Of a DNA stretch of 64,000 bases, positions 29,608 through 64,000 are shown piece by piece. Each line of letters opens with the position of its first letter. Position 1 is the stretch's first letter. The stretch is from Hormiphora californensis (lineage: Eukaryota > Animalia > Ctenophora), in contig CM035362.1 in assembly GCA_020137815.1 (NCBI GenBank), positions 1,364,001 through 1,428,000 of the forward strand, given 5' to 3'. The notes under the pieces are model-generated. The model did not search any database, had not been told where the DNA came from, and saw only the letters and a program-made list of their open reading frames with translations. Both the position numbers and the translations under genes were made by a program.

Positions 29608-29645
<38 letters not shown>

Positions 29646-29713
29646 GGTCTTCTCTCGCTGACGATCTAATCGTCTATCTCTCTGATCTCTCTCCTCTACG
29701 TCGATATCTCTAA

Positions 29714-29796
<83 letters not shown>

Positions 29797-33642: not shown

Positions 33643-36600
33643 TCATCTTGAGTCCCTCATTGTCCGCTTACTAAATCTCACAGTCCCGCCAGATCCAGGA
33701 TGGCCCCCTCCCGATGGGGAGGGTGGGCCCATTAACCCACCATCCCCACCCAACCCCCCTGAGCCACCTAGGTACATCTGACTCTGAGTCTTTCGAAGGG
33801 AGTGCATTTTGTTTTTCGTCGAGAAAGCTCGTGACATGCTTCGTTTGGCAAAGTTGAAGATGTTTGGTTTTGATGAGCTGCTTCCTCCACCGCCCGATAG
33901 ATGTTTTGATGAAGGAGCAGGGATCTTGGGGTGAACCTGGAGTGATTCCTCCAGTTGAGCTTGGCAAATTTGCACGTCTTCATCGATGGTTTTGAGGGTA
34001 AAACACCGTTTACTGAGGTTAACTGCTTCCACAAGGGCCTGATGCCACTCTGAGCGTCGCACCTCAATGTCTTGGGATGGCTCCTCGCTGAGGATTTTAA
34101 ACCTGGGGAAATGCAGATCGTTAGTAAGGGTTATATTTTTGATAGGGTGACAGTTAAAACGCTAAATGTACTAAAATGTACTGCATAATAAAATGTATAA
34201 CTCACGCTATAGTGTATTCCAGTTTAGCATCAGTAGAACTCTTCCCCTTTTCATCTCCCTTCTTGGCTTCACACATCCTAGCGTTATAAGTTAGACCCAT
34301 TACATCACCTGAAAAGGAGAGTGTCAGCAGAAATATCGGTCTTATCGTTGGGTACTTGATCGTTTAGGGTACTTTGGTAGTGGTAAAACCACTAAAATGT
34401 CACAAGTTTTTGAATTGTCACTCTTCACACTCACAGAGTGTGTATTTGAAAGGGAGTGGGATAGGTTCATGAGTATTATTAGCTAGATCAACATACCATT
34501 ATCGAATACTGAGAACACATGTGTTACAGCTCTCAGAGGAATGTGAAGGACGTGTTTGTATGTGGTCCTTTTCAAGGCCTTGTCTAGACCCCCACCACCA
34601 CTCACACTACCAGTCTTTATCTTCGGTCTTGTTATCTGGGAAATGTGGTCTGGTTAATAAGTTGAGTGATTTGTACAGAAGAAAAGAAAGAAACGGTTGA
34701 ATATAAAATGGAAAAAAGAATGATGGGAAAAGAGCTAAAGAAATAAAGTCATCGTTACCTCCAAGACAGAATCCTCAGTAGGGGCGAGATTCTCCTTGGC
34801 CCCATCAATCACCATGAGAAAGAGAGACGCATACCCGTCCTGTTGTAGAGTATGGATCTCACATAGGGATAGGGCATTGCAACGTTGTGTTAGTTGGAGT
34901 CTATTGACGGATATCTGGTGCATCTGGAAATGGAGTTTAGTGTGATAGAGAGGGAGGGAATGTAAGACAACATTTGGAATGAATTCTCCATGCAAGGAGA
35001 TCAGGAATAGTAAATACAGAAAATTGGGGGAATTAAGAAACTATCTGGGAAATTGACACGCACCGGTAATCCTGAGATATCTTTCAGGGTTTCCAAAAAT
35101 GAATATTTGTCATCGATAATCTTCTTTTTCTCATTCAAATGAGTGGTCCGTGCTTTGAATTCATCTTGAACTAATCGCAGCATTTTGTAATCCGGGTGGG
35201 CACTGTCTGTTTTAGCTAAAATCGCATCTGGAGGAGAGTTTGTGTAAAGATACAATTATGCAAACTATATGGTGGTTATCTAAAATGTGAGGTACCAGGC
35301 AATTCAAAGGAAAAAAAACACCAATAAATTGGAAATTGTAATATTGTACTGGGTGTTCATTTTGGATCTTTACAAGCGTTGGCCGTTGGCCTTCACCCAG
35401 AAAAAAGTTGACAAGATCAGGTCATGAAACTTCATACTTGGACTATTCTATACCCTCATTCAAGGTTCCTGGGGTTTTTGGACTTTAGGACCCCAGGAAG
35501 TGTGTTTTTGGCATCAAAACTACCAGAAGGAATTTTTTGCTGGTGCTGAGACGTTGCTAAAATGTTTTTTGGGTATTTTATATGACAATCCTAAAGTTTC
35601 ATAGAGATTGGATGTGTTTTTCGGACTCAAAATTTCGATAAAAGTGGCTGGAAAGGCTCGAAAATAGCTCAAAAACGGCTAAAATTGAGTCTTTCCAGCC
35701 ACTTTTTACGAAATTTTGAGTCTGAAAAACACATCCAATCTCTATGAAACTTTAGGATTGACATAGAAAATACCCAAAAAACATTTTAGCAAAGTCTCCG
35801 CACCAGCAAAAAATTCCTTCTGGTAGTTTTGATGCCAAAAACACACTTCCAGGGGTCCTAAAGCTCCAAAAACCCCAGGAACCTTGAATGAGGGTATAGA
35901 ATAGTCCAAGTATGAAGTTTCATGACCTAATCGTGTCAACTTTTTTCTGGGTGAAGCCCAACGCTTGTAAAGATCCAAAATGAACACCCTGTACAAGGGA
36001 GGGGAAAGGGGTACAGTTATTTGTTTAAACTCTATCTCGCTTACCTAGAAGAAGAATCATACGCGGTAATCGCTGGACTGGCTCAATCATAAGATCTCGT
36101 AGGCTCAACCTGTGGTTCTCTCGCTTTGATCCCTCAACCTTCAACAACGCCTTGAACCTGGATGGGCAAATTAGGAAAGTGGGGTTCTAAATTACAGGCC
36201 CAGGGGAGTACGTAATTGCAGATCTGTAGGTTAAGGTAAGCATTTGAACATCAGAGAGTTTGAAAGATATTTAAGGAGGATCTTATACATAACATACCGG
36301 TAGTTGCTTGCCTCAAATCGACCAATCATTGAACTGATATCCTCTTTAGCTGTCAGATACGAGGTGTAGACTTTCTGAAAACATGATAAAACTTAGTTCA
36401 ACCTCTACTTTATATTGTACGAGTCCTAACAACTTGAGAATAAGATGGGGTACCCTTATATTTTACTTCATCATCACTCATTTAAATTAATCACTTACCA
36501 AAACATCGATTTGTGTGTTCCTATCTCCTGATGCCTCCCCACTAGGTTTTCGTGCCCCGGCTGTGCTGTCTCGCTGTTGTTTCGTCATGTGGTAATCCTT

Positions 36601-39600
36601 GTACTCGTTCCTTCCGTAACTGGGGAGAATGTAGTGGAAGAAGAGGAGGAATGAAGGGTGTGGGGGGAAGAAGAGAAGAGGAAGAGGAGGAAGAGTGAGG
36701 GAGGGGAAGGGTGAGTGGTTGAGAGTCTCTCAAAGTCAACCACTCACCCTCCTCCTCAGTGAGAGAGGAGAGGGAATGGAGGAGTGAGAGGATGAGATGG
36801 AGATGTTCACATTTCCTAAACTCTTTTGACTTCATTATCTTTGATCTACTACCAGGATGTCACCCCACAATGACCCTCCATCTTCCCAGTAACTCACCTA
36901 AATCCCTCTAGGATCCTGTCCCGGTGTGCAGCGCTCATCTCCCTAATCTCCACCAATCTTCCATCACTGCTCAACTCCCTTCCCACCCAGTTCAGGAGTA
37001 TCCTTCCAAAACTGAGCTGGGCAGGTGAGGTTGAGATACTTTGCCGGGTTTTACTTGCCCTAATCTCCTCTATCTTTTGTTCTTCTTGCCGCTTCTCGTA
37101 GAGACCTGAAAGGGGAGGGTGGAGATTGGAATGGGTTGTTTCAACTTGCACACCGTACTGGTAGGGAGGGAATAAGGGAAAACGAGAGATACTCGTTGTC
37201 TCACAAAAGACTTCCCTTTCCGAACCGGGTCGAAGAAACAGGAATGTAGTATGACAACCATTTAGTAACTATGGTAACCATTTAGTAACTATGGCAACCA
37301 TTTAGTAAGTCACTTACGAAGATGCTGAACCAATGCCTCGTGTGCAATTCTAATAGGAGGAATCTTGTTGAAAATACGATAGTTATCCAGGATAGAAATA
37401 TGGTTGTGAGCGGGGGCTGTTTCATCCCAGACAGCCTTGTAGATTTGGGTGTAGTAGTTCTGGGAGGAGAGGGGCAGGTTAAAAGATAGTTTAGTTGGAG
37501 AGGGACAAAAATATTTTATAAAGGTAAGGGTATGAACTTGGGAGTATCAACAAGAGAATCAATACTATCAAAATCCTATTTCCGTCTTGCCTCTTTCACC
37601 ACTGCACCAATCTAAGGCCCTTAGGTTAGTAAGGGTTAGAACAACTTGGACTCCAGCTTGGAGTCTTCTTTCACCACACCAAGAAGGAGTTAGAACAGTT
37701 TGGAGCCACAAATTACCTTTTCTATGATTCGTAAATGTTCAACATAACTTTCCTCCGTTCGAATGAATTCAGAGATTATCATGTCTCTCTTCTCTGGGAC
37801 CTGCAAAATTGTAATCAATTGTTATGTAGCTGAGTAGAGCGGGAGTAGAGCCCAATTAGGTCCAATTTAAGATATCTAAATCATACTATTATTAAAGCAA
37901 ATAGGGAAATGATGGGTGATGGTTTTTTTACCAAATATGGCACAAAATTCCTGGAAATGGCCTTTTGCACGTGTTGTCCCTAGAGGGACCCTGGCAGCCT
38001 GCCAGCTTGAGCCTTAAACTGCACGTGCATCCTTGATTCATCTCTCTGCCGGTTGTGTGATTGATCGTTTGCTCGATTTGATCTGTTCACCCCCTGTTTA
38101 CCACGTTTCGTGAACATGACTACTCAACTTCAACACAATCGCCAGCGAGTTTGGAGGAGCCATATGTCCCAAACTGACGCTGACGCCTATAGACTACGTG
38201 ATAGAATCCTACAAAAGAGGTGATTATTATTCAAACAAGAATTATTGCATTATGTATTCATAATGCGGTGTTTCCCTGCCCTCCGTCGACAGGATCAGTA
38301 TCACACTATCAGTATCACAATATCAAGGCTTGGTCACAATGTGAGATGCATGCGTCCTGTATGTATGCAGTTACACAGCTGTTTTACTCTACCCTCACCC
38401 CTTCAGCAACAGTGTTGTGAGCGCCGCGCACAGCTTTGAAAAATAAGCGTCCTGACATCATATTTCATCAAAACAGTTATTTGATTTTATGAAGGAGCAG
38501 TTACTATGCTGCTACCGTGACACACGCGATTTTGACCACGCTCGAGTTACTATTTCAAATCCGAGATTTCTAAACCCTTTATGATCTTTTTAGCACACGT
38601 GCTAAAACGATCATCCGGGTGGATGCCCTTCGGGCATCCACCCGGGCAGGGAAAAAATGTTGTCAACACACGTAATAACAAAGTATCAATGGCACTAATA
38701 AGAAATGGCAGTAATACGTGAAAGTATTTTGCAAATGTGCTCCTTCATAAAATACTTCAGGACCTGGCAAAAGAGGACCCGTGGTTTTTCTGTCGAAAGA
38801 ATCGCTGTGGTTAATTTACTGATTTAAAAAATTTCAAATGATACTACACTATTTGCTTAGTTTACTGTATGACCATTGACCATCCCCGACATTCGCCCGT
38901 AGGGCGAGCGGGCTTACTAGTGTAATCAATTGTAGCTGAGTAGATAGATAGATATAATTGATAGAGTTGGATTCCCATTGACCGGGATCAGCGGGATGCT
39001 CGGGGGGGGGGGGGGGAAGAACTTTCCCGGTAAATCGAGGTGCCCGGTATATGGGTAACTGTAAGCATTGCTGTACTTATTGCTTTGCTGTTTTTTTCTG
39101 CTTCTTTTTTTCTACATCTCTCTATCTAAACTGTCCTCTATCCCGATTCCCACCAGCTAAATCTAGCTAAATCAGCTGAGTCCCGTTAGCTCTCGCTCTC
39201 ATCTGCTGATTCAGTCTGCTCTCTTTCATTTTCACTCTCTTATTGTCTGTATTCCCATATGATCTAGATCTATATACTTCGCTGATTTCTCTCCCTTCCT
39301 TTAACACTTAGAATGCAAGGACACACATTTGGGCGCCCCTATATTTACTACTCCGTTCCTAAGATGATTTACGATTTTGGATTCATGGCTGTAACCAATA
39401 AGGCCCAATTAAGAATGCTCTTGTCAACTAACTCTTGTCAGACCCCGATTGACAAGGATGCTCGGCCGATCGGGGAAACAGTTTCCCCCGGTAAATTGAG
39501 GTGCCCGGTATTATATGGGGGTTGGGGGTGCCGGGTGAAGCATTTTAACCCACTAGACGTGCATGACAATTACAGTGATCATGCGACATAATTGTCACAG

Positions 39601-42600
39601 CTCGACGTGGGATTCGACGTGGAATTTGAAGTGCGCATTCGTCGTGAGAGAGACGTAAAGACTAAGGAGAACGAAGAGTTGAAGCGCAACAGCATTTGCT
39701 AAGTGCAGCGGGTCTCTCTCATCTGGTCGAATCCTACGTCGGATTATATCGGATGACCACTGTTTCTCTTCACGATAATTTTATTTATTCCAAAGGAGTT
39801 AAGTGGTTAGATGGGAAGAGAGGGAAGAGTAATTATATAAGCTTTGGGGTTATCAGTCATTGGTTCGGGAGAGAAGGGAAGCTAGAGAGAGAGAAGAATC
39901 TTCTAACTGAGAGGTACAGCTTACTACACGCTCAGCACAAAAATGGGAAACAGCACGGGGGAGAGGATCAGAGAACATGTTACTCTTGATAGGGAGAAAA
40001 CTGGGAGGACCGATAAGCTCAAAAAGAGCTAGAGAGGGCAAGCTATGTGTAGTGATTTATTGTAGCTTGGAGCTCTCTAAAAATCGTGCTTAGAATAGCA
40101 ATAACACTTTTTGTTTGCTCCATCCTTTTGCTCTCCAAAGTGCTACGAACTGCCATCGAGAGATCTCTTTCTCCAAGATCAGCTAGTGTTTTTACCAGTG
40201 GCATATTTTATTTTTGAAGTAATACCAGATACTGAATTCAGAATTATATCAATAACATTTTAGTGTACATTTTCATTTCTAAATCCCTTAGGGCTTAACT
40301 TTGTTTTTTATATTAGAGAAAACGTTATCCAAGAGCAATCAGAAAAATGATTTATACCATACTCTTTCTCCTCATTTTCTGTCGGACAGGTATGAGATAT
40401 TCATCATTTGAATTTTACTTAGAATGTTATTTATAGCCTGTTAGAACGTAGTTTATTGATTTCACTATTTCAGATTGTAGCTCTCTGCCAGACCTTGGAG
40501 TTGAACAAAATGAAAAGGATCCCATCGAGCCAAATATAGTTGATCCTGATCCTGTGGTTGATCCTGATCCTGTGGTTGATCCTGATCCAGTGGTTGACCC
40601 TGATCCTGTGGTTGATCCTGATCCTGTGGTTGATCCTGATCCTGTGGTTGATCCTGATCCTGTGGTTGATCCTGATCCTGTGGTTGATCCTGAACATGTG
40701 GTTGATCCTGATCCTGTGGTTGATCCTGATCCTGTGGTTGATCCTGATCCAGTGGTTGATCCTGAACCTGTGGTTGATCCTGAGCCTGTGGTTGATCCTG
40801 ATCCTGTGGTTGATCCTGAGCCTGTGGTTGATCCTGATCCTGTAGTTGATCCTGATCCTGTGTTTGATCCTGATCCTGTGGTTGATCCTGATCCTGTGGT
40901 TGATCCTGATCCAGTGGTTGATCCTGAGCCTGTGGTTAATCCTGAACCTGTGGTTGATCCTGAACCTGTGGTTGATCCTGATCCTGTGGTTGATCCTGAT
41001 CCTGTGGTTGACCCTGATCCTGTGGTTGATCCTGATCCTGTGGTTGATCCTGAACCTGTGGTTGATCCTGAGCCTGTGGTTGATCCTGATCCTGTGGTTG
41101 ATCCTGATCCTGTGGTTGATCCTGAGCCTGTGGTTGATCCTGATCCTGTGGTTGATCCTGAGCCTGTGGTTGATCCTGATCCTGTGGTTGATCCTGATCC
41201 TGTGGTTGATCCTGATCCTGTGGTTGACCCTGATCCTGTGGTTGATCCTGAACCTGTGGTTGATCCTGAACCTGTGGTTGATCCTGATCCTGTGGTTGAT
41301 CCTGATCCAGTGGTTGATCCTGATCCTGTGGTTGATCCTGATCCTGTGGTTGATCCTGATCCTGTGGTTGATCCTGATCATGTGGTTGATCCTGATCCTG
41401 TGGTTGATCCTGATCCTGTGGTTGATCCTGATCCATGTGGTTGATCCTGATCCTGTGGTTGATCCTGATCCTGTGGTTGATCCTGATCCTGTGGTTGATC
41501 CTGATCCTGTGGTTGATCCTGATCCTGTGGTTGATCCTGATCCTGTGGTTGATCCTGATCCTGTGGTTGATCCTGATCCTGTGGTTGATCCTGATCCTGT
41601 GGTTGATCCTGATCCTGTGGTTGATCCTGATCCTGTGGTTGATCCTGATCCTGTGGTTGATCCCTGAACCTGTGGTTGATCCTGATCCTGTGGTTGATCC
41701 TGATCCTGTGGTTGATCCTGATCCTGTGGTTGATCCTGATCCTGTGGTTGATCCTGATCCTGTGGTTGATCCTGATCCTGTGGTTGATCCTGATCCTGTG
41801 GTTGATCCTGATCCTGTGGTTGATCCTGATCCTGTGGTTGATCCTGATCCTGTGGTTGATCCTGATCCTGTGGTTGATCCTGATCCTGTGGTTGATCCTG
41901 ATCCTGTGGTTGATCCTGATCCTGTGGTTGATCCTGATCCTGTGGTTGATCCTGATCCTGTGGTTGATCCTGATCCTGTGGTTGATCCTAATCCTGTGGT
42001 TGATCCTGATCCTGTGGTTGATCCTGATCCTATAGTTGATCCTGATCCTGATCCTGTAGTTGATCCTGATCCTGTGGTTGATCCTGATCCTGTGGTTGAT
42101 CCTGATCCTGTGGTTGATCCTGATCCTGTGGTTGATCCTGATCCTGTGGTTGATCCTGATCCTGTGGTTGATCCTGATCCTGTGGTTGATCCTGATCCTG
42201 TGGTTGATCCTGATCCTGTGGTTGATCCTGATCCTGTGGTTGATCCTGATCCTGTGGTTGATCCTGATCCTGTGGTTGATCCTGATCCTGTGGTTGATCC
42301 TGATCCTGTGGTTGATCCTGATCCTGTGGTTGATCCTGATCCTGTGGTTGATCCTGATCCTGTGGTTGATCCTGATCCTGTGGTTGATCCTGATCCTGTG
42401 GTTGATCCTGATCCTGTGGTTGATCCTGATCCTGTGGTTGATCCTGATCCTGTGGTTGATCCTGATCCTGTGGTTGATCCTGACCTGTGGTTGATCCTGA
42501 TCCTGTGGTTGATCCTGATCCTGTGGTTGATCCTGATCCTGTGGTTGATCCTGATCCTGTGGTTGATCCTGATCCTGTGGTTGATCCTGATCCTGTGGTT

Positions 42601-45600
42601 GATCCTGATCCTGTGGTTGATCCTGATCCTGTGGTTGATCCTGATCCTGTGGTTGATCCTGATCCTGTGGTTGATCCTGATCCTGTGGTTGATCCTGATC
42701 CTGTGGTTGATCCTGATCCTGTGGTTGATCCTGATCCTGTGGTTGATCCTGATCCTGTGGTTGATCCTGACTCTGTGGTTGATCCTGAGCCTGTGGTTGA
42801 TCCTGATCCTGTGGTTGATCCTGATCCTGTGGTTGATCCTGATCCTGTGGTTGATCCTGATCCTGTGGTTGATCCTGATCCTGTGGTTGATCCTGATCCT
42901 GTGGTTGATCCTGATCCTGTGGTTGATCCTGATCCTGTGGTTGATCCTGATCCTGTGGTTGATCCTGAGCCTGTAGTTGATCCTGATCCTGTGGTTGACC
43001 CTGATCCTGTGGTTGACCCTGATCCTGATCCTGTGGTTGATCCTGATCCTGTGGTTGATCCTGATCCTGTGGTTGATCCTGATCCTGTGGTTGATCCTGA
43101 TCCTGTGGTTGATCCTGATCCTGTGGTTGATCCTGAACCTGTGGTTGATCCTGATCCTGTGGTTGATCCTGATCCTGTGGTTGATCCTGATCCTGTGGTT
43201 GATCCTGATCCTGTGGTTGATCCTGATCCTGTGGTTGATCCTGATCCTGTGGTTGATCCTGATCCTGTGGTTGATCCTGATCCTGTGGTTGATCCTGATC
43301 CTGTGGTTGATCCTGATCCTGTGGTTGATCCTGATCCTGTGGTTGATCCTGATCCTGTGGTTGATCCTGATCCTGTGGTTGATCCTGATCCTGTGGTTGA
43401 TCCTGATCCTGTGGTTGATCCTGATCCTGTGGTTGATCCTGATCCTGTGGTTGATCCTGAATCCTGTGGTTGATCCTGAACCTGTGGTTGATCCTGATCC
43501 TGTGGTTGATCCTGATCCTGTGGTTGATCCTGATCCTGTGGTTGATCCTGATCCTGTGGTTGATCCTGATCCTGTGGTTGATCCCTGATCCTGTGGTTGA
43601 TCCTGACCTGTGGTTGATCCTGAACCTGTGGTTGATCCTGAGCCTGTGGTTGATCCTGATCCTGTAGTTGATCCTGACTCTGTGGTTGATCCTGAGCCTG
43701 TGGTTGATCCTGATCCTGTGGTTGATCCTGATCCTGTGGTTGATCCTGATCCAGTGGTTGATCCTGATCCTGTGGTTGATCCTGATCCTGTGGTTGATCC
43801 TGAACCTGTGGTTGATCCTGAGCCTGTGGTTGATCCTGAGCCTGTGGTTGATCCTGATCCTGTGGTTGATCCTGATCCTGTGGTTGATCCTGAACCTGTG
43901 GTTGATCCTGATCCTGTGGTTGATCCTGACCCAGTGGTTGATCCCTGATCCTGTGGTTAATCCTGAACCTGTGGTTGATCCTGAACCTGTGGTTGATCCT
44001 GAACCTGTGGTTGATCCTGAATCCTGTGGTTGATCCTGATCCCTGTGGTTGATCCTGATCCTGTGGTTGATCCTGATCCTGTGGTTGATCCTGATCCTGT
44101 GGTTGATCCTGATCCTGTGGTTGATCCTGATCCTGTGGTTGATCCTGATCCTGTGGTTGATCCTGATCCTGTGGTTGATCCTGATCCTGTGGTTGATCCT
44201 GATCCTGTGGTTGATCCTGATCCTGTGGTTGATCCTGATCCTGTGGTTGATCCTGATCCTGTGGTTGATCCTGATCCTGTGGTTGATCCTGATCCTGTGG
44301 TTGATCCTGATCCTGTGGTTGATCCTGATCCTGTGGTTGATCCTGATCCTGTGGTTGATCCTGATCCTGTGGTTGATCCTGAGCCTGTGGTTGATCCTGA
44401 TCCTGTGGTTGATCCTGATCCTGTGGTTGATCCTGATCCTGTGGTTGATCCTGAACCTGTGGTTGATCCTGATCCTGTGGTTGATCCTGATCCTGTGGTT
44501 GATCCTGATCCTGTGGTTGATCCTGACCTGTGGTTGATCCTGAACCTGTGGTTGATCCTGATCCTGTGGTTGACCCTGATCCTGTGGTTGATCCTGAACC
44601 TGTGGTTGACCCTGATCCTGTGGTTGATCCTGATCCTGTGGTTGATCCTGATCCTGTGGTTGATCCTGAACCTGTGGTTGATCCTGATCCTGTGGTTGAT
44701 CCTGATCCTGTGGTTGATCCTGATCCTGTGGTTGATCCTGATCCTGTGGTTGATCCTGATCCTGTGGTTGATCCTGATCCTGTGGTTGATCCTGATCCTG
44801 TGGTTGATCCTGATCCTGTGGTTGATCCTGATCCTGTGGTTGATCCTGAACCTGTGGTTGATCCTGATCCTGTGGTTGATCCTGATCCTGTGGTTGATCC
44901 TGATCCTGTGGTTGATCCTGATCCTGTGGTTGATCCTGACCTTGTGGTTGATCCTGATCCTGTGGTTGATCCTGATCCTGTGGTTGATCCTGATCCTGTG
45001 GTTGATCCTGAACCTGTGGTTGATCCTGATCCTGTGGTTGATCCTGATCCTGTGGTTGATCCTGATCCTGTGGTTGATCCTGATCCTGTGGTTGATCCTG
45101 ATCCATGTGGTTGATCCTGATCCTGTGGTTGATCCTGATCCTGTGGTTGATCCCTGGTTGATCCTGATCCTGTGGTTGATCCTGATCCTGTGGTTGATCC
45201 TGATCCTGTGGTTGATCCTGATCCTGTGGTTGATCCTGATCCTGTGGTTGACCCTGATCCTGTGGTTGATCCTGAACCTGTGGTTGATCCTGAACCTGTG
45301 GTTGATCCTGAACCTGTGGTTGACCCTGATCCTGTGGTTGATCCTGAACCTGTGGTTGATCCTGATCATGTGGTTGATCCTGATCCTGTGGTTGATCCTG
45401 ATCCAGTGGTTGATCCTGATCCTGTGGTTGATCCTGATCCTGTGGTTGATCCTGATCCAGTGGTTGACCCTGATCCTGTGGTTGACCCTGATCCTGTGGT
45501 TGATCCTGATCCTGTGGTTGATCCTGATCCTGTAGTTGATCCTGATCATGTGGTTGATCCTGATCCTGTGGTTGATCCTGATCCTGTGGTTGATCCTGAT

Positions 45601-48600
45601 CCAGTGGTTGATCCTGAACCTGTGGTTGATCCTGAGCCTGTGGTTGATCCTGAACCTGTGGTTGATCCTGAGCCTGTGGTTGACCCTGATCCTGTGGTTG
45701 ATCCTGAACCTGTGGTTAATCCTGAACCTGTGGTTGATCCTGATCCAGTGGTTGATCCTGAACCTGTGGTTGATCCTGAGCCTGTGGTTGATCCTGATCC
45801 TGTAGTTGATCCTGATCCTGTGGTTGATCCTGAGCCTGTGGTTGATCCTGAGCCTGTGGTTGATCCTGAACCTGTGGTTGATCCTGAGCCTGTGGTTGAT
45901 CCTGATCCTGTAGTTGATCCTGATCCTGTGGTTGATCCTGAGCCTGTGGTTGATCCTGAGCCTGTGGTTGATCCTGATCCAGTGGTTGATCCTGATCCTG
46001 TGGTTGATCCTGATCCTGTGGTTGATCCTGATCCTGTGGTTGATCCTGATCCTGTGGTTGATCCTGACCCTGTGGTTGAATCCTGATCCTGTGGTTGATC
46101 CTGATCCAGTGGTTGATCCTGAGCCTGTGGTTAATCCTGAACCTGTGGTTGATCCTGAACCTGTGGTTGACCCTGACCTTGTGGTTGATCCTGATCCTGT
46201 GGTTGAACCTGATCCTGTCGTTGACCCTGATCCTGTGGTTGATCCTGATCCAGTGGTTGACCCTGATCCTGTGGTTGATCCTGTGGTTGATCCTGAACCT
46301 GTGGTTGATCCTGATCCTGTGGTTGACCCTGATCCTGTGGTTGACCCTGATCCTGTGGTTGATCCTGATCCTGTGGTTGATCCTGAACCTGTGGTTGACC
46401 CTGAACCTGTGGTTGATCCTGATCCTGTGGTTGATCCTGATCCTGTGGTTGATCCTGACCCAGTGGTTGGTCCTGAGCCTGTGGTTAATCCTGAACCTGT
46501 GGTTGATCCTGAACCTGTGGTTAATCCTGAACCTGTGGTTGATCCTGAACCTGTGGTTAATCCTGAACCTGTGGTTGACCCTGATCCTGTGGTTGATCCT
46601 GATCCTGTGGTTGATCCTGATCCAGTGGTTGATCCTGAACCTGTGGTTGACCCTGATCATTATGTTGATCCTGATCCTGTGGTTGATCCTGAGCCTGTGG
46701 TTGATCCTGATCCTGTGGTTAACTCACAGCCAGTAGTCAGAACAGCAACTTCTTTCACTAATCTAGCTCGGACAGAACATGCTATATTCTCATCTAGCTC
46801 ATTGTGGGATCTAAATAACAACCCTTTAACCCATCTTTATGATGGAATCAAGTAGGTTTACTTCATGAATCAAGCTGATTTATTTGTATCCGAGATCTAG
46901 CGTTGCTTCAAGGCCTTTTTGAGTGTCGGCCGTGATGTTCTATCTAACCACCTACCCCGCAGGACAAGTAATCCTGATAAATGGTGCTCAACACACAAAC
47001 TAGGAGTCCTATCCTGGTTTATCATTACCCTTGACAAGGACTACTATCTGGAGAAAACTGTCATAACAAATAGGGGGAATGAGGGACAGGGTTATGATTC
47101 TAGGGCTATTGGTTGTGAGATTCTAGTTGATTCCGTGGCGGTGTACAAGATTCCAAATATCCAAGTGGAGTACGATATACCAATTGACAAGGTAAGAAAT
47201 GCGCTCTTGGTCTCCACATTTCAGTGTTGCATTACTATTAAACACCTCTCCTTTTACAGATAGGAAAGACGTTCACCATTCAAAAGATGAATGAGTTCAT
47301 CAATCTTTTAGAGATTGAATTGTACGGGACTGATACCTCCTTCACTAATCTAGCTCGGACAGAACATGCTGTATTCTCTTATAGCTCATTGTGGGATCCA
47401 ACAAACAACCCTCTAACCCATCTTTATGATGGAATAAAGTAGGTCTAGTTGATTGATCGATCTTTCAAACTTATTTGTATCCGAGATCTAGCGTTGCTCT
47501 AGCGTTGCTCTAGCGAGATCTAGCGATGTTCTATAACTAGATCCACCCATGCACCCCACTGACCTCTCATCCCGCTAACCACCCACCCCGCTAACCACCC
47601 ACCCCGCAGAACAAGTAATCCTGATAAGTGGTGCTCAACTCGCAAACTAGGAGACCTATCCTGGTTTATCATTACCCTTGATAAGAACTACTATCTGGAG
47701 AAAACTGTCATAACAAATAGGGAGAATGAGGGACATGGTTATGATTCTAGGGCTATTGGTTGTGAGATTCTGGTTGATTCAATAGCGGTGTACACGATTC
47801 CAAACATCCAAGTAGAGTACGATATAGCAATTAACAAGGTAGGAAATTCGCTCTTGGTCTCTAAATAACCTCCACATTTCAGTGTTGCATTACTACTGAA
47901 CACCTTTGATCCTTTTACACTTTACAGATGGGAAAGACGTTCACCATTCAAAAGATGAATGAGTGGATCAACCTTTTAGAGATTGAATTGTACGGGATAG
48001 ATTCTACCATTAGTAAGTTGGTTCATGGGAAAATCATTGAGGGCACGTTTTTATGTTTGGGTAAACTCCGGTTGGGCTCGGGTAATTTTCTAGTAAACAA
48101 AATGGGGTCAATATGATGGCAAATATTGACACCCATTGATTCGGGGGGGGGGGGGGATTCCCATTGACCGGGATGCACGGGTGAAAGGATTTTCCCGGTA
48201 AATCGAGGTACCCGGTATATGGGCAACTGTAAGCATTGCTGTACTTATTGCACTGCTGTACTTTTTCAGCTTCTTTTTTTCTACAACTCTACTTAAACTG
48301 TCCTCTTTCACCCTCTAGACGCGCATATGCTGTTCTAAGCTAATGACACACTTATCTTTCATCACTTATCTTTCACGAGAATTTTTCCCAGAAGAGTTAA
48401 GTGGGGTAAGTGGTTAGATAAACTTTATCTAACCACTTACCCCACTTAAAGGCAAGAGTAAGCTTAGGGGTTGAATCATCAGTAATTGGTTTGGGAGAGT
48501 CTTAAGGATATAGAGAGAGAGAAGAGTCCTCTGAGGGGTACAGCTTACTGCACGCTGGGCACAAAAAGGGTAAGGCACGGGGGAGAGGATCAGAGAACTT

Positions 48601-51600
48601 GTTACTCTTGATAGGGAGAGAACGGGGAGTCACGAGATGACGGTCATCATGACCGATTAGCTCTCCTTGAGCTAATCGGTCCTCTCGTGACTCCCAGTTT
48701 TTAGAGATATAATTTTAGCTCTCTAAGTATCCTGCCGTAACACATAACTTTTTTCTGCTCCATCCTTTTGCTCGGCTAGTGTTTTTACCAGATACTGAAT
48801 TCAGAATCAAGAACGTTTTAATGCAGTTTTTCATCTCTGAATCCCCTGACTTTTAGCGGATACGACATCCAAGAGCAATCAGGAAAATGATTTATGCCAT
48901 ACTCTTTCTCCTCATTTTCTGTCAGATAGGTATATGAGTTATTCATCATTTGACTTTAGTTTGGAATGTTGTTTATACATGTTATAGTCTGTTAGAACGT
49001 ATTTTAGTCATTTTACTATTTCAGATTGTAACCCTCTGCCAGATTCTGGAGTTTTCTCCACTAATCTAGCTCGGACAGAACATGCTGTATTCTCTTCTAG
49101 CTCATTGTGGGATACAACAAACAAACCTCTAACCCATCTTTATGATGGAATAAAGTAGGTCAATTTGATTGATCGATCTTTTAAACTTATTTGTATCTGA
49201 GATCTAGCGTTGCTCTAGCGAGATCTAGCGATGTTCTATAACTAGATCCACTCATGCATCCCGCTAACCACTCATCCCGCTAACCACCCACCCCGCAGAA
49301 CAAGTAATCCTGATAAATGGTGCTCAACACACAAACTAGGAGTCCTATCCTGGTTTATCATTACCCTTGACAAGGACTACTATCTAGAGAAAACTGTCAT
49401 AACAAATAGGGGAAATGAGGGATGGGGTCATGATTCTAGGGCTATTGGTTGTGAGATTCTAGTTGATTCAGTAGCGGTGTACAAGATTCCAAATATCCAA
49501 GTGGAGTACGATATACCAATTGACAAGGTAAGAAATGCGCTCTTGGTCTCCACATTACTATTAAACACCTTTGATCCTTTTACAGATAGGAAAGACGTTC
49601 ACCATTCAAAAGATGGATGAGTTCATCAATCTTTTAGAGATTGAATTGTACGGGACTGATATCTCCTCCACTAATCTAGCTCGACGACACTTATTCTCAC
49701 TACCAGCATCATAATCAGTAGTAGGTGTCACCAACACAACACACGCCCCGCTACACCACCTCAAGTGAGACAACCATAACACTAAAAACCCCCCCCTACA
49801 TACAACCCGACCTTACCCCGAAACCACCACCCGATACCAAACCGCACTTTCCAATCCCCTGATACGGCCCATCAGCCAACTAACCTACTTCTGACATTTA
49901 TCACACTGTATATCACATTTTTTAAGACGTTTTATCATTCACTATCAGATTTAACCCCACCATAATTCTAGTTTCCCCTACCATCCAGACTCGACAAACC
50001 ACTGCTATCCCCTTCCTAACCCCTGACCACACACCACACAACACACCTACCCCCTTAACGACCACCTAAACCACTCCTACACTCGTACACACACCGCTTT
50101 ACACTTAGTCCTCTGAACTACGTTTCTCCGCTCAGCGACACCAGCCGACTTATAACTAGATCCACCCATGCACCCCACTAACCACCCACACCACTAACCA
50201 CCCACCCCGCTAACCACCCACCCCGCACACCACCCACCCCGCTAACCACCCACCCCACTAACCACCCACCCCGCACACCACCCACCCCGCACACCACCCA
50301 CCCCGCTAACCACCCACCCCGCTAACCACCCACCCCGTAGGACAAGTAATCCTGATAAATGGTGCTCAACACACAAACTAGGAGTCCCACACCACTAACC
50401 ACTCACCCCGCTAACCACCCACCCCGCACACCACCCACCCCGCTAACCACCCACCCCGCTAACCACCCACCCCGCACACCACCCACCCCGCTAACCACCC
50501 ACACCACTAACCACCCACACCACTAACCACCCACCCCGCTAACCACCCACCCCGCTAACCACCCACCCCGCACACCACCCAACCACTAACCACCCACCCC
50601 GCTAACCACCCACCCCGCTAACCACCCACACCACTAACCACCCACCCCGCTAACCACCCTACCCCGCTAACCACCCACCCCGCACTAACCACCCACCCCG
50701 CACACCACCCACCCCGCTAACCACCCACCCCGCACACCACCCACCCCGCACACCACCCACCCCGCACTACCACCCACCCCGCTAACCACCCACCCCGCTA
50801 ACCACCCACCCCGCTAACCACCTACCCCGCAGGACAAGTAATCCTGATAAGTGGTGCGCAACTGACAAACTAGGATACCTATCCTGGTTTATCATTACCC
50901 TTGACAAGGACTACTATCTGGAGAAAACTGTCATAACAAATAGGGGGAATGAGGGATGGGATTTTGACTCTAGGGCTATTGGTTGTGAGATTCTAGTTGA
51001 TTCAGTAGCGGTGTACACGATTCCAAATATCCAAGTAGAGTACGATATACCAATTGACAAGGTAGGAAATGCGCTCTTGGTCTCTAAATAACCTCCACAT
51101 TTCAGTGTTACATTACTATTAAACACCTCTCCTTTTACAGATAGGAAAGACGTTTACCATTCAAAAGATGAATGAGTACATTAATCTTTTGGAGATTGAA
51201 TTGTACGGGAAAGATTCTACCAGTAAGTTGGTTTATGGGAAAATCATTGAGGGCACGTTTGTATGTTTTGATAAAATCCATTTGGGCTTGGGTAATTTTT
51301 TTAGTAAACAAAATGGGGTCAATATGATGGCAAATATTGACACCCATTGATTCGGGGGGGGGGGGATACAATGTTTACACTGCTGTCCTCCTCTAACAAT
51401 TCTCATCCAATTAATCAATTACCAATTAACCAATTAACTAATCACTAATTACTACGTACTGGCGAGGAAGAGAGGTCAATGTTATCAATGGATTTGTTGG
51501 CGATTATCGAACCATTCATCAGCTCCGCTGCCCTGCAAATAGAGACACTGTTAAACAAGAGACATGATTATATGAACACTTTTGAATGAATGGTTTTGAG

Positions 51601-54600
51601 TAATTTTAAATTGAATCATTTTTAATGAAACATAACTCATATTATTTTGCTAATTAATAATCAAAGATACTGATTACCTCTTATTAGGTGGTAGTCCTGG
51701 TTCCGCTTTCCGTTTTCTAGCCAGCATTGCTGGGTCCACCAGATAGGACTTGGTACAGATGTAAGTGTGTGCGGAGAGGCACTCCCATACCCACTGAAGG
51801 TTGTTATACTATTAGTTTTGGGGAGTTCGAGTCATTACAATGTTGTCTCACAAAAAAGAAGAAATATTAGTGAGTGCCTAGTAAGCACTGCCTACTACCT
51901 AACAATAACAATTACAGTCGGACCCCGATTTAGTGGCATCCTCGGGGGAAAAAAATCCTGCCACTAAATCGGGGTGCCACTAAATCGGGGAGATCCATAT
52001 TTGGCCCATAAAAACATATTTTATGCCCAAAATGCTATACTAAGACTAAAGACACCTCTAACTGTTATATGCAATATTCATGTATTGATGACATGATCAT
52101 TTCTGATTAGAAATAGAAAACTATAAAATAATGTTTTCAAAAAAATTGTGAAAAATTTTCTAAGTTATACTAGCCCGTCCGATTTGTGTTTCGAATCGGT
52201 GCAGCTTACTGGATGTCCTGTCTAATTAGCGGGTTCGAAACGAACGGGGGGGCCGGCTGAAGTTTTTGAAGTCGACTTCAAAAACTTCAAACAAAAACTT
52301 AAGGTGGAAAACTTCAAAAACTTCAAAAACTCATATCTCCTCAACCGTTGGAGATAGGTATGTTGCTTCATAACTCTTATATAAACTTGCATATTCCGAA
52401 CAAGATACACCCCTTTAAAAATCCTATAGACACTCAGAAACCATCAAAACTGGTCTAGCCCAAAAATAAGTCATGCGCACACACACAATTATGAAAATAT
52501 CCCATTATCCCTCGAATTAGATGAGGTGGAGACTTCATTTTGGCACGTACCCCCACTAACTCGAGGCCGCTGATGATTTTAGTGTCCATAGTTTTTTCAC
52601 TACTCCCTACATAAAAAATTTGCATTTTGTGAAATTGGCAAAAAGGGTGTGGCCCCAAAAAAAAATTTGAAAATTTACATCATAATTTTTACACTTTCTT
52701 AGCATTTTCTAGGCAATTTTTTGAGTTATAGAATGAAAATTAAATTTGTTTTTACAAAAAAATTAAATTTTTTACACCAAATTGTGCCTTGGATTTCATG
52801 GCTAGGAATCATTGTAAATATCCTAATTTGTGGTAGAAAAAGGGCAGACAAGGCCGGATAACTTTGTCACAATATGTATTAAGCATGAAACTAACCTAAA
52901 CAAGTGTAATAAAAGTCACTGATAGCATATAAAAGTAGTTTAGAGTTTTTGAAGTTTTTGAAGTTTTTGAAGTCAACTTCAAAAACTCAAAAAGTAGGGT
53001 GGAAAACTTCAAACTTCAAAAACTTCAGCCGCCCCCCCCCCCCCCCAAACGAACCGATACGTGATACCATGCCAAATCGAGGCACCCTAAGCGGGTGAGG
53101 AAGTATCAAAATTTCAAAATATCTTTTTCTCTCAAAATTTATGGGGAGCGCCGATCAAAGCATTGACAATCGTACTGTAAAATTTTGCAAAAAAAAGTTT
53201 TAAAATTTTTTTGAAAGGTATACCAGCCACGTCCGAATCGTGTTTCGAATCGGTGCATCTTATCGCAATATGTCCTCATCCTGCTGCTAATTAGACGGTT
53301 CGGAACGAATCGAAACGTGATCCCCATCGAATCGAAATTTTGACGCTTGGTGAACTTGTGATTCAATGGCCCCATGGGGATCACGTATCGGTTCGTTCCG
53401 AACCGTCTAATTAGCAGCAGGACATACGATAAGATTCACTGATTCGAAACACGATTCGGACGTGGCAAGTATTCCTTTGAAAAATTTTCAAAAAAATTTC
53501 ACAAAAAAATCAAAAAAATTTTTGGGGGAAAAAAATCGTGCCACTAAATCGGGGTGCCACTAAATCGGGGGCCACTAAATCGGGGTCCGACTGTATAAAG
53601 TGGTCTTGAATTAGTCACCCCTCAGGGTACTTGGCAAAGTGAAATATAAACGAATTGTAATCCTAGTAAATCATCTCTTACCCCATCAGTGACCAATTCA
53701 GCTGTCAGTCCTCCGTCTCTCTTGACCCTCCCAGACACCTTAGCTCGTTCAATAATGGGTAAAAGATCGTAGATGCTCTCCCCGGTGCATTTTACTGAGC
53801 TGATGACAACGTGGGTTATCACGGTTTTACCAACGTCCGCGATACTCGCTACTTCAGCACCTGTAATCAATGGTAACCAAGGTAACGGGATGGTAACCAA
53901 GGTAACGGGATGGTAACCAAGGTAACGGGGTGGTAATAAGTGAGATCAACCACATACCGTATTGTTTACAACAGCATGCCAGTTCGTTGATCTCTCCTTC
54001 ACTATCGAACCCCACTAGAAGTATACTAATCCGATAAAACATGGGGCATACATAGACATGGGACTGCTCCTGGAATAGCTGCACCGCGTCCAACAATCTG
54101 AATCAGGGGGAGGTTTGTGAGTCTCAGTACTAGCCTTAATATATCAGTTATTGTGGTGACTTGGTTTGTACTTCATGATACTGGTGCGAGAGACAAAGTT
54201 GAATTATTGCTCTCAGGCCAATGCTCTGACCACTGTTCTCGTACAATCCATTTGAAAGAAATACTAATAAGGTCAGCTGTCAATGCCCTGACAGAGATAT
54301 TGAGGAGACATGGTTGTGGTATAAAAACCCTAAAAAGAGCAAATGCCTTTATACCTGTCATCTTTCCTGGCGTAGCAGTCTTTGATCCAGTCGGGTTTAA
54401 TTGCCCTACTTTGGCGTCCTAGTGCCAAGTGTGTCTGGAATGAAGGGAATAATATTAGAAGTGCGATGAAACTTTATTGAAAACTGAGCTGAACAACTAG
54501 ATGTCTTGTAAATGTAATGACTCCTGAAGTCCAAGTATCATTTATTTTCGAAACTTATAATCCCGTATTTCCCGTGATTTACCTCATATTTCTCCTGCCC

Positions 54601-57454
54601 CGCTCTCATTGGTATCAGAATTATATCATCGTTATTAGTTGGGTATTTGGACATAACATGTGCCCCCATGAACTTGGCCATACGACACAACCGCGACTGG
54701 AAATAACCAGGGTTACAAACTACCTTCAATTGCAAATAATTGAAAACTAAATTAAACTAATGTATTCACGTATTTCTGCATGTTAGTGTTACAATTGCAT
54801 CGGTATGGATACAAGATCAGTTGTAAAAACTGATAAAACTGAAGCACTGCTTCAGAAGCAGCGGTTAAATAAAAACAAATCAAAAGGTGGGAAAGTGGGC
54901 AGTAAAACCCACATCTCACGTACTAACAACTACCCTTATTGAGTATAGTGCTGTTACTCAACAACTCCTACCCTGAATGATTACAGAAGGGAGGATTTCT
55001 CTGTTTGACAAGGCTAGTAACTAAGTCGCCTACATACCGCACCCAAAGAGCTACTTATAACTCAACAGAGGAGGAGGGATTATAATAGCTCTCCTCCCTT
55101 GTTCTAGGGAGCTCGAGACATTCCAAACATACCAAGAGTTCCCTGTCGCCAAAATGGGAGAAGCACAGGGAGAGACCCCTCATTGACATATTGTAAAGTT
55201 TGTGTCCCTTTATCGATGCCAAGCCCTGGAAGTGAGAGAATGATAGGAGTTTGTTAAGGGGGGTAGGAGGAGGATTGTGGAATAATGCCTGACTGAAGAT
55301 CTTAGCCTTTTTTTCCCCCTAGACGTCAAGTTATGTTTGAAGCGTTTTTATTAAGAAATAAGGGTAGTTACTTGTTTGTGTGACCAGTATAATAATAAAA
55401 CGGGATGATAACTGATAAATGTTTCAGTACTCACAATGTCGTGCTGCACACAGTACTCAATAACCGGTGGTCCTCTGAACCTGGTGGGAAACAGATAAGT
55501 ACCAAATTAGTGGAACCCAATCATTAGATCATTAACATGCAAAATAAAACATGCATGTGAGGAGACCCATATTTTCATTTCAAAGCGAGGGAGCGGGGTT
55601 TGTTGGGGGCCTCTGCGCGTCATATCGCGCCACCAACTCTCTCTACCGTGATCCGCGCGTTACAAACATAACACGACGGTGAAATTCAGAACAAGTGAAT
55701 GAGGCTGGTACATCGACTGAGTGTGATACTTGCAGACAACAAATATAACAAGGGACGGATGAATAGGGGCGACCAGGAAACGAACATAGACACAAATAAC
55801 AACGAGATCTTACTTGAGTTTTATCTCCTTGCTAAGATGTGAGATTGTATCAAAATCTCGGGTAATGTAGTAATTTTGGGCAGTTGAAGAACGTTCCTCA
55901 TCTTGAAGCCGGGAATAGAAGTGGAAAATGTCAGTACACGGGGGCTCCTCGTGGCAGACATAGATGTAGGGTGTAGATGTCTGGTAGGGGGGAAAAGGAG
56001 GTAAGAGCGTTGTCGAGGGTAACAACTTGGTATTGAATACTGAAATTCGTCTGCTTTGTGCCTTTGTGCCCCAAAACAAAAATATTTCACATTATTCACT
56101 AAACTAGTAAACCCGTTCGCCCTACGGGCGAATTTCTGGGAAATGGTAGCTGGATTAGGGAATACTGACATCACCAGTCGAACTGTTGACATGCACCGTA
56201 AAAGGAGCTCAGGTGGGATCGCTGCGAGTTTTAAAACTCCTCGCGTTTCATCTGTTTGCAGTATTCATCTGGGATTGATCACCGGTTCTGTCTAACCTCC
56301 AACGTCTTTTTCGTTGTCTCTGCACTTCTCAGTTCTCTTGGTGTTGCTGTATTTAAACCCCTCAGTGTATGGAAAAGTAGAGAATGGCGGTGAGATCTCC
56401 AATTGTCGCTTTCGTAATCGTATATCAACGGTTGTTGAAGAGAGCATAATATAGCTGGAACAGTGACACAAAAACAACGCAAGAACAGCTGCACGTGCAG
56501 CTGCAGTACATTAGTAACAATCCTTGGCAACGGCTCCCACCCCTGGCCCAACTCCAGCTATAGTACTCCACCTCTAAACCTGCACGTGCAAAATGCCATA
56601 TTTGGTTAAAAAAACGGGACATGGGATTTCCCTATTTGCTTTAATAATCATACTACTTACTATTCAAATTGTCAGTGCTACATCACCTAGCAACTACACC
56701 TGCACGTGCAATTATTAGAGCAACTTAGAAACCTCACTCCCAGTTGCAGTTTTGGGTACTAAGGGGAAATTCAATTCTGCACGTGCATTCTTTTACTTTT
56801 GTCCTGATGTCTAACTCTTCAACCCCAAGCGCTATTCGGCAACAGTCATCTGGGTCCGGAAGATCTGCTGCTGTCAGAGAGCAGGCTAGAGAATATGACA
56901 GATTACGCCAACGTGTTCAAGCGAGCCAATCAACGACTACGGATAGCTTTACCCAACGTCGCCCAAGGGTGATTACTCCAGTCGAATATAGAAATCTCCG
57001 AATCGGCTACATAGCGGCCAAGTTTTCACGCGATGAATTTCTGGAACAGCACTGCACCTCCATGACATTGATCTCTTAAATTCGCACCTTGACATTGTCA
57101 GGAATCCCAGAGCGTACAACAACATGGGTAGGGAGAAAGTGAGAGATAGGCTAGGAACGGATGGTGCAGGTGATGTCAGCGTTCCCTAATCCAGCTACCA
57201 TTTCCCCGAAATTCGCCCGTAGGGCGAACGGGCCTACTAGTACATAGTATGATTAATATTATGATTCGGTTTTCAGCTCAAAAATAAGACGAAAGACTGA
57301 GTATCTTAAACGTAATTTAGAAAATCTTCCTTAAATCTCAAAAATCAAAAAATAGGGTAGTAGCTGATATGATTTTTGCGACAGACACCCTCCCCCCCCC
57401 TCAGCTAGGTCAGGGATGTAGCGTGTGTAGGTACATACTGTCGTAAACATGCAT
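33643..57454 (-). CDS. ECT2: ECT2/pebble-like RhoGEF (BRCT repeats, DH, PH)
   Basis: BRCT exons FRGPPVIEYC (55480-55435), LYNMSMRGLSLCFSHF (55225-55133), RLCRMAKFMGA (54696-54583), KPDWIKDCY (54434-54355), WVWECL (51793-51678). DH exons KRDMIISEFIRTEESYVEHL (37800-37717), LRDLMIEPVQRLPRMILLL, HPDY; last exon ends at 33643. First exon 57454-57439 is tentative. Confidence 0.85.
35349..35991. mobile_element. Palindromic MITE with about 300-bp arms and TA TSD (mariner-like)
   Basis: TA|ctgggtgttcattttggatctttacaagcgttgg ... ccaacgcttgtaaagatccaaaatgaacaccctg|TA. Confidence 0.9.
37881..38920 (+). mobile_element. Non-autonomous Helitron
   Basis: A|TCatactattattaaagc start; ttcgcccgtagggcgagcgggcttaCTAG|T end; additional internal GC hairpin near 38615-38645. 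Confidence 0.85.
40347..48116 (+). CDS. Secreted protein: signal peptide + about 340 VVDPDP repeats + two F-type-lectin/F5-8C-like domains; nested antisense in the ECT2 intron
   Basis: Exons 40347-40389 (MIYTILFLLIFCRT), 40474-46851 (enters and leaves the repeat in the VVDPDP frame), 46963-47191, 47260-47438, 47610-47838, 47928 onward. Domain TNLAR...SSSLWD..HLYDG..WCST..WFIITLD..VITNR..R..INLLEIELYG; several 1-bp indels inside the repeat; C-terminus uncertain. Confidence 0.8.
40539..46720 (+). repeat. 18-bp tandem repeat (gttgatcctgatcctgtg)n, about 6.2 kb
   Basis: Seen directly; homogeneous centre, variant-rich flanks. Confidence 0.99.
48887..49683 (+). CDS. Tandem paralog: signal peptide + F-type-lectin-like domain, no VVDPDP repeat
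   Basis: Exons 48887-48929 (MIYAILFLLIFCQI), 49025-49154 (DCNPLPDSGVFSTNLAR...), 49299-49527, 49586 onward; upstream region duplicates about 38960-40470; sequence garbled after about 49685. Confidence 0.75.
50160..50830. repeat. C-rich about 16-bp minisatellite (ccgctaaccacccacc) upstream of a splice acceptor
   Basis: Same motif in 1-2 copies before acceptors at 46962, 47609 and 49298; contains a partial exon copy at 50341-50387. Confidence 0.9.
50833..51350 (+). CDS. Fourth F-type-lectin-like domain (3' exons of paralog 2 or of a third paralog)
   Basis: Exons 50833-51061 and 51141 onward; WCATDKLGYLSW...NRGNEGWDFDSR...YINLLEIELYG. Confidence 0.7.
51915..53593. mobile_element. Longer CAGTCGGACCCCG-family TIR element with TA TSD, carrying a nested insertion
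   Basis: TA|cagtcggaccccgatttagtggc ... gccactaaatcggggtccgactg|TA; internal palindrome shared with 58866-59479. Confidence 0.88.
52246..53046. mobile_element. G-run-terminated TIR element with 8-bp TSD AAACGAAC
   Basis: aaacgaac|gggggggccggctgaagtttttgaag ... cttcaaaaacttcagccgcccc|aaacgaac; 9-bp subterminal repeats. Confidence 0.8.
56104..57252 (-). mobile_element. Helitron interrupted near its 5' end by a second Helitron
   Basis: CTAG end with hairpin at 56104-56131; 5' motif (tcatact...ttattaaagcaaatagggaaat, as at 37881) is split around 56648-57240. Confidence 0.75.
56648..57240 (+). mobile_element. Non-autonomous Helitron (copy of 14447-15054)
   Basis: A|TCatactacttac ... ttcgcccgtagggcgaacgggcctaCTAG|T. 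Confidence 0.9.
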
Positions 57455-63513: not shown

Positions 63514-64000
63514 GGTGCTGTGGGATTCAAAGTTGTTATACAATTACACAAATCCTCTGTTATTTGCGACACATACCAGACCACGGTAGCGACGGAACGA
63601 AGACAGTGAAAATCCGCTGGCAAGCTGTTATAGTCAGATGTTTAGTGAGTCAGTGCACTGGGCGCCGTAACGATCTGTACTGGGCGTTTACAGGTGCCGG
63701 GTGCGTGCCACCAAAATTACCATACACTAAAATGGCTCTAACCTCCAAACGGTCCAAACGGCTCAACTGGTTTGGCTAATCCAAAGTTCATCTCATAGCA
63801 AGTCTAAAGCCCTGAAGCGGTAAAACCAGACCGAACCGCAGCCCTAACCCTAAAAATCCGTGAGTGCTGACACAGAAAACACAAATACAAATACAAAAAC
63901 AATTATAATTTATATCCCGCTTTTGGGCCTATGCATTGTTAGTGCTAGGAGGACGCCGTTTCAATCAGTCGATTGAAGCAACGCACCCACTTTAACGTTT

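Follow-up and report, generated by a model that had tools for sequence, protein, structure and literature searches.

Here, we describe a 64,000-nt stretch of the genome of the ctenophore Hormiphora californensis (GenBank assembly GCA_020137815.1, contig CM035362.1, positions 1,364,001 to 1,428,000 of the forward strand), which we refer to as the window and number from its first nucleotide. The plus strand of the window carries three paralogous genes, here called A, B, and D, that encode one or two domains of the same sequence family. Gene A additionally contains a long tandem array of 18-bp units, and we consider it likely that this array is translated, as a (VVDPDP)n stalk, within exon 2 of a gene for a predicted secreted protein.

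Gene A, its array, and its paralogs

Tandem Repeats Finder reports the 18-bp repeat as a single array (40539-46720, period 18, 343.2 copies, 95% matches), and its words are absent from the rest of the window. The array lies wholly within exon 2 of a seven-exon gene structure. The features of gene A and its paralogs are as follows.

40347-40389, plus strand: gene A exon 1, 43 bp; Met followed by a hydrophobic, signal-peptide-like stretch; phase-1 donor
40474-46851, plus strand: gene A exon 2, with an assembled length of 6,378 bp; comprises a short leader, the array, a short linker, and the first third of domain A1
40539-46720, plus strand: 18-bp array, 343 units, (VVDPDP)n with D/E variation
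46963-47191, plus strand: gene A exon 3; core of domain A1
47260-47438, plus strand: gene A exon 4; end of A1 and start of A2
47610-47838, plus strand: gene A exon 5; A2 core, weakly matching PF22633 (E 0.082)
47928-48012, plus strand: gene A exon 6; end of A2, phase-1 GTAAGT donor
48094-48116, plus strand: predicted terminal exon of gene A with stop, common to gene B
48887-49683, plus strand: gene B, repeat-free paralog, exons 48887-48929, 49025-49154, 49299-49527, and 49586 onward; domain B1 and first residues of B2
49684-50830, no strand assigned: garbled, G-poor sequence ending at about 50150 and followed by a 16-bp array (50171-50830); the rest of the first exon of B2 is expected here
50833-51327, plus strand: second domain of gene B (50833-51061, 51141-51222) and terminal exon (51305-51327), common to gene A
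58497-60049, plus strand: gene D, divergent single-domain paralog without repeat, exons 58497-58542, 58604-58724, 59504-59723, 59831-59909, and predicted 60036-60049

The N-terminus of the gene A product has a 9-residue hydropathy of 2.6-3.1 over its first windows. The first intron (84 bp, GT-AG, acceptor at 40474) sets the frame of the array to VVDPDP, and at its 3' end the array keeps this register as it passes into a globular domain, the first of two tandem 131-residue domains with no stop between them. The coding sequence on this side is interrupted by five further GT-AG introns (46852-46962, 47192-47259, 47439-47609, 47839-47927, and 48013-48093). If the register is kept throughout, the predicted product has approximately 2,390 residues, of which the repeat accounts for approximately 2,060, and we saw no membrane anchor in it. 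The stalk is composed of Val (33%), Pro (33%), Asp (29.5%), and Glu (3.4%), giving 33% acidic residues, with 0.1% Ser and no Thr. Glu replaces the second Asp of the unit in 66 units and the first Asp in one. Substitutions per unit are least dense in the first half of the interior of the array (0.09-0.18) and most dense at its 3' end (1.23). The first-pass annotation of this DNA, made without database searches, had proposed a signal-peptide-like exon spliced in phase into the array (40389/40474), an in-frame exit into a lectin-like domain, and a stalk of about 2000 aa, one-third acidic and one-third proline; the gene structure bears out the first two, and the composition of the repeat supports the third.

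Gene B shares its upstream region, leader, and intron positions with gene A, and both ends of gene A exon 2 are homologous to gene B exon 2; however, in gene B the leader is joined directly to the domain without a repeat, as had been noted for the paralog at 48887. The end of gene B had been placed at 49683, and here the earlier description has to be extended because the second domain follows at 50833-51222 together with the terminal exon of gene A. The intervening stretch (49684-50830) is likely an assembly fault. Its 16-bp array comprises 40 copies and is an expansion of a short repeat found in the matching introns (47552-47607 and 49257-49296), and a partial exon copy within it, near 50336-50387, reaches an alignment score of 57 versus a shuffle maximum of 58. 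Gene D has intron positions and phases as in genes A and B, with a core exon that is 40% identical, and each of the three paralogs has a phase-1 donor after its last domain. Because two paralogs are free of the repeat, gain of the repeat in gene A is a simpler reading than its loss from genes B and D.

A read-through splice from the phase-1 donor at 48013 of gene A to the acceptor at 49025 of gene B would be in frame, making a four-domain form possible; such a form is not needed because gene A has its own terminal exon. Separately, contigs of sequencing run X3 over 47268-47373 and 47966-48130 have a depth of about 710 compared with about 215 upstream of gene B, which hints at more copies of the domain exons beyond the window.

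The lectin-fold domains

The domains encoded 3' of the array had been described from the sequence as lectin-like, and database comparisons allow them to be named as divergent F-type (fucolectin-fold) lectin domains by sequence similarity. A comparison of the A1 core exon with the ESM Atlas gave F5/8 type C clusters at the top (score 0.95), and a HMMER search over 1.84 billion proteins gave seven matches at E 0.001, six of which are proteins with multiple F5/8 type C domains. The best of these is a Xenopus fucolectin with 34% identity. The seventh, a DUF7507 repeat protein (P0005), was left out of further profile building as a likely chance match. A profile built from 13 domains cut out of the HMMER matches, and thus partly circular and with no reversed control reported, matched the spliced domains from the first strand onward with E values from 1.5e-9 to 3e-7 at Z=1000. 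The domains have F-type/F5-8 type C homology along their whole length, and gene D passes the cut-off of the PF00754 model (29.3 versus 28.2 bits, E 1e-6).

Searches with smaller pieces were less informative. The best family match of the gene A and B exon pieces taken singly had an E value of 0.082, the A1 core exon alone had no match among PDB sequences, word-index protein searches with three single exons against longer proteins gave nothing, and an exact look-up of five open reading frames (ORFs) of the window found no match, so that no close relative emerged. The domain alignment matched only two F-type lectins in the PDB, SP2159 and FBP32, both weakly. A fold predicted for a 76-residue single-exon piece of the three-exon domain had a predicted local distance difference test (pLDDT) score of 60 and no Foldseek match at E 0.001.

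The fucose motif of F-type lectins is His...Arg-x-Asp-x4-Arg/Lys according to a review (PMC5712786). In the five domains of the cluster this motif is incomplete: the His column is Thr in all five, with a His one residue past it in A1 and B1 only; both sugar-pocket arginines are kept, with two to three additional residues ahead of the second; and where the motif has its acidic residue after the first Arg, A1, A2, B1, and B2 have Asn, gene D being the sole domain with the Arg-x-Asp part of the motif. For the cation motif (h2DGx), DG and the Glu of the last strand align, and the neighboring residues are larger than those the motif calls for, a feature shared with some of the Xenopus domains. The cysteines that form the disulfides of eel AAA (Cys50-Cys146, Cys108-Cys124, and Cys82-Cys83) are mostly absent: the Cys of the last strand is replaced by Leu or Val, the 108-124 region is shortened, with about 12-15 residues missing ahead of the last strand, and there is no CC pair.

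Among the four close domain copies (A1, A2, B1, and B2), the ratio of nonsynonymous to synonymous differences (pN/pS) is 0.29-0.56, with Fisher p values of 0.004, 0.02, 0.12, and 0.007 for four of the six pairs, which are not independent of each other. Because pN is below pS, we conclude that the domains are coding and under purifying selection. Replacements among these copies recur at a few columns of the domain beside the pocket residues (43, 47, 74-76, and 121). The heads would likely bind a glycan, although probably not fucose in the canonical manner.

A metagenome scan with 166 pattern matches yielded 19 loci (L001-L019), all encoding distantly related F-type domains, in ORFs 190-409 aa long, and none with the repeat. 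In the ORF stretches listed for these loci, the usual last segment of an F-type domain is found ahead of the usual domain start (e.g., L002:864-935). This segment order also occurs in single-domain ORFs of about 200 aa and is an apparent circular permutation. In the F-type domains of algal viruses, two C-terminal strands have been described as missing (PMC5712786), and a circular permutation could explain their absence.

The reading frame of the array

As assembled, exon 2 contains 13 one-base register changes (nine insertions and four deletions, net +2), and the first stop in gene A is reached at residue 338. The earlier view of the array as a giant coding exon therefore holds for its position inside a spliced gene but not for the assembled exon as one open frame. 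All the array indels are interior (about 41420-46090), so that 882 bp at one end of the array and 640 bp at the other are free of them (probability by chance about 0.025), and most are homopolymer-type insertions in which a single C or A is added next to an identical base. The unique exons of gene A contain neither a stop nor a frameshift. The first-pass annotation had called for checking the internal 1-bp indels against reads, and short-read contigs allow this at one site. We used contig pieces over 43905-43990 from four DNA runs of two samples, with 32 of 925 pieces listed. The extra C at 43943 is absent from all ten listed pieces that cross it, which come from all four runs and both samples and include one piece that differs from the window in nothing else and one that extends over all of 43905-43990. 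Among 15 listed array joints, all nine at a depth of at least 100 are in frame, as are two at low depth. We infer that the remaining 12 frameshifts are errors of the long-read consensus, and the 13 frameshifts together look like assembly errors.

The codon positions of array substitutions had been taken as a sign of constraint on the protein. Counted by copies, 117 of 141 substitutions fall at third codon positions of the VVDPDP frame (three of the 141 stem from one mis-parsed unit). Because the copies of an array are not independent, we also counted by type, and among the recurrent types the excess is 6 of 8 (p=0.02). In the VVDPDP frame, 67 of the 139 counted changes are Asp to Glu. Third positions of this frame coincide with those of the antisense frame, (TTGSGS)n. 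The bias therefore does not choose between the strands, so the argument from codon positions stands as a count by copies but does not by itself demonstrate constraint on VVDPDP. Two other lines of evidence were considered and set aside: dipeptide length variants (+6, +6, and -6), which are explained by the inner 6-bp period of the unit, and the lack of stop-creating substitutions in the VVDPDP frame, the codons of which are never one change from a stop. The case for coding is therefore carried by the gene structure, in which the array is entered and left in frame and the GT-AG introns of three paralogs agree in phase, and by the short-read indel test rather than by codon positions alone.

Several observations weigh against a translated array in a secreted lectin-headed protein. 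The signal peptide of gene A is called from hydropathy only, and the heads depart from the fucose motif as described earlier. The short-read indel check covers one of the 13 indels, with the share of listed pieces given above. The frame is lost at four of the 15 listed array joints, of which three belong to run X1 (depth 14-29) and one to run X5 (depth 14). By distinct type, the third-position share is 9 of 19 (p=0.15) and not significant, and silent changes amount to 115 of 139 in the antisense frame versus 48 of 139 in the VVDPDP frame, so that the antisense frame fits at least as well.

If the frameshifts were mostly real, gene A would be a decaying copy or a null allele in which the repeat is still expanding, with gene B or other copies being functional. 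The register changes and the early stop in the assembly speak for this, as does the coverage of a single indel by short reads, and the out-of-frame joints in X1 have a depth close to that of unique DNA in the same run. However, X1 also has indels in unique DNA that are missing from the deeper run of the same sample, and its out-of-frame joints may be read errors. The result at 43943, the array ends free of indels, the intact unique exons, and pN below pS in A1 and A2 likewise stand against decay, which we judge to be quite unlikely.

It is also improbable, and slightly more so, that splicing removes the array, as a non-coding minisatellite, from the gene A transcript and leaves a protein similar to that of gene B. 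The one run that may be RNA gave no contigs over 46680-49700, which speaks neither for nor against this. AG dinucleotides are present just 3' of the array, and few mutational events underlie the codon bias. At the 5' edge, however, the GT words are GTTGAA, GTTGAT, and GTGGTT, whereas all 15 donors checked at the locus begin with GTA or GTGAGT (the third donor of gene D being read one base to the left). Because the edge words are unlike the donors in use, inclusion of the array in the transcript is favored; in addition, the two flanks share one open register, and the high-depth short-read variants keep the frame. The least probable alternative is that the constrained product is the antisense (TTGSGS)n, a mucin-like Ser/Thr/Gly repeat on the strand of the host gene. 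In its favor, every third-position change is silent in that frame. Against it, a recurrent substitution found in five units puts stops in that frame (40692, 41376, 45364, 45544, and 46655), the minus-strand frames are closed just beyond the end at 46720, and a plus-strand gene accounts for the position of the array and both its flanks.

The amount of repeat in the reads was modeled by a simulation with 31-letter words from the array of the window. With fully overlapping words, the simulated depth profile fits the observed one (r 0.98 in X3 and 0.95 in X5) at about 2,100-fold per assembled copy, and looser overlaps fit poorly. The unique flanking contigs have a depth of 173-293. This suggests that the genome holds 7-12 times more repeat than has been assembled, a figure to be taken as a lead since summed depth is not copy number, and that the excess lies in a longer array, in more loci, or in both. 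Loose contig ends show other exits out of the repeat.

Genomic setting, possible roles, and comparison with known systems

The cluster likely sits within an intron of an ECT2-like host gene encoded by the opposite strand, for which the following exons were identified.

37693-37821 and 36028-36186, minus strand: host RhoGEF (DH) exons downstream of the cluster, PF00621 E 5.2e-7 and 0.0012
51678-51793, 54583-54696, 55435-55480, and 55814-55980, minus strand: candidate upstream host exons with AG/GT ends, open and spliceable

The best PDB match of exon 36028-36186 is human ECT2 (6l30, E 1.4e-4; next match 0.032), in agreement with the earlier placement of the cluster in an ECT2 intron. The upstream exons are less certain: their motifs suggest that they may be BRCT-like, but searched as single exons they had no family or structure match that would confirm this. 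Elsewhere in the window, a plus-strand multi-exon coiled-coil gene (about 20900-31900) is presumably CCDC40-like, and opposite to it, on the minus strand, is a Sushi-domain exon (24547-25550, PF00084 E 2.3e-6) that is probably another nested gene. Long ORFs that match MATH and BTB occur in duplicate at 11573-15900 on the minus strand (PF00917 E 2.7e-6 at 11573-12202). A short Gly/Pro-rich minus-strand gene at 62740-63543 has no Pfam match and, judging from a motif, may be MPLKIP/TTDN1-like. Nesting of genes in introns is common in at least one ctenophore genome, with 2,357 nested genes (PMC8527503).

We propose that a two-domain lectin gene would have been duplicated in tandem in the intron of the ECT2-like gene and that one copy would have gained the repeat right behind the leader. 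The stalk may then be an unfolded, extended polyanion. Because there are no Ser/Thr residues to speak of, it is not expected to be an O-glycosylated mucin, and because there is no anchor, the chain would be held by its lectin-fold heads, two of which could tether it to glycans of the cell surface or the extracellular matrix. In a secreted coat, mucus, or glue, the long, hydrated acidic chain would bind cations and act as a spacer or form a gel. We lean toward this reading of an unanchored secreted chain with glycan-tethering heads; that the step to function is drawn from composition and architecture counts against it. If the array is translated, its product would be an F-type-lectin-fold protein with a very long acidic, polyproline-like chain that lacks glycosylation sites, a candidate component of a secreted gel, glue, or mineral matrix, with the repeat-free paralog next door as a natural control. 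A more far-reaching and rather doubtful idea is that gene A belongs to a family, not described so far, of giant "mucin analogues" free of glycans. These would be polyanions of Asp, Pro, and Val, thousands of residues in length, that are tethered by re-specified F-type heads, have stalk-less twins, and form the cation-set glue or statolith matrix of a comb jelly or similar early-branching animal; the reads suggest either several such genes or a far longer array. Among colloblast candidate genes, lectin is one of the over-represented categories and low-complexity regions are reported not to be enriched (PMC6278862).

Two other roles would use the same coding gene. The acidic chain could be a calcium-binding mineral-matrix protein, for example of the statolith, with heads that anchor it to a polysaccharide scaffold. 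One third of the stalk is acidic, and proline-rich and acidic repeat proteins as well as lectin-like proteins are abundant in the sea urchin tooth matrix (PMC2614417). However, the acidic residues are spaced by Pro and Val, there is no phosphorylatable Ser, and composition does not separate a role in a gel from one in mineral; we regard the mineral role as unlikely. Alternatively, the protein could be a gamete or self/non-self recognition lectin in the style of oyster bindin and eel fucolectin, in which the diversified heads are the point and the stalk is a mere spacer. The differences that recur near pocket residues in the four close copies are consistent with this, and oyster and eel F-type isoforms vary around the pocket (PMC5712786); overall, however, pN is below pS, and recognition appears to us a very unlikely role. 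We retain the spacer or gel-forming chain as the preferred reading.

F-type-lectin heads combined with a very long acidic stalk were not found in the literature searched, outside which lie most subscription papers and all supplements, and a search for the repeat words gave one irrelevant match. In the available parts of two reviews of F-type lectins (PMC5712786 and PMC12221842), a word search found no stalk, mucin, proline-rich region, or ctenophore example. The separate parts, which are tandem F-type domains, giant repeat exons, acidic or proline repeats, and stalked lectins, are of known kinds, and it is their combination that we did not find in print. The arrangement is moderately surprising, since a signal peptide with a giant repeat exon and small binding domains is well known and nesting is common in at least one ctenophore genome. 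Annotation would miss gene A, its exon being masked as satellite and disrupted by apparent assembly errors.

F-type lectins such as eel AAA, striped bass FBP32, the multi-domain fucolectins of Xenopus and fish, and oyster bindin are secreted and have tandem domains of one sequence family, as predicted here, and the DG of the cation motif, the Glu of the last strand, and both pocket arginines align with those of genes A and B. In contrast to these lectins, genes A and B have Thr in the His column, Asn after the first Arg, a longer spacing, and no Cys in the last strand.

The mucin genes MUC2 and MUC5AC contain one giant tandem-repeat exon. As in these genes, gene A is predicted to combine a signal peptide with one multi-kilobase repeat exon and folded domains in small exons, and it shares with them a homogenized array center and more variable ends. 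Unlike mucins, it has almost no Ser/Thr, and thus no repeat rich in proline, threonine, and serine, would derive its charge from Asp/Glu instead of O-glycans, and lacks VWD and cystine-knot domains as well as an anchor. The EP procyclin of trypanosomes is an acidic-proline rod with an acid and proline composition similar to that of the stalk but is cell-anchored and unrelated in sequence.

With 33% Asp and Glu and secretion predicted by hydropathy, the product of gene A has the character of an acidic low-complexity secreted chain. In this it resembles the sea urchin proteins SM50 and PM27 and the Ala/Pro-rich and acidic proteins of the tooth, which are described as secreted and composed of simple, extended, disordered repeats with small folded domains (PMC2614417). 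These proteins differ from gene A in having C-type lectin or Kazal domains rather than F-type domains and far shorter repeats of other families, and a role in mineral has been shown for them, whereas for gene A such a role is hypothetical. Finally, the Periscope proteins of staphylococci (Aap, SasG, and Pls), which are cell-anchored, have stalks of folded domains, and are unrelated in sequence, provide an analogy only, that of a lectin-like head on a length-variable repeat (PMC9999234).

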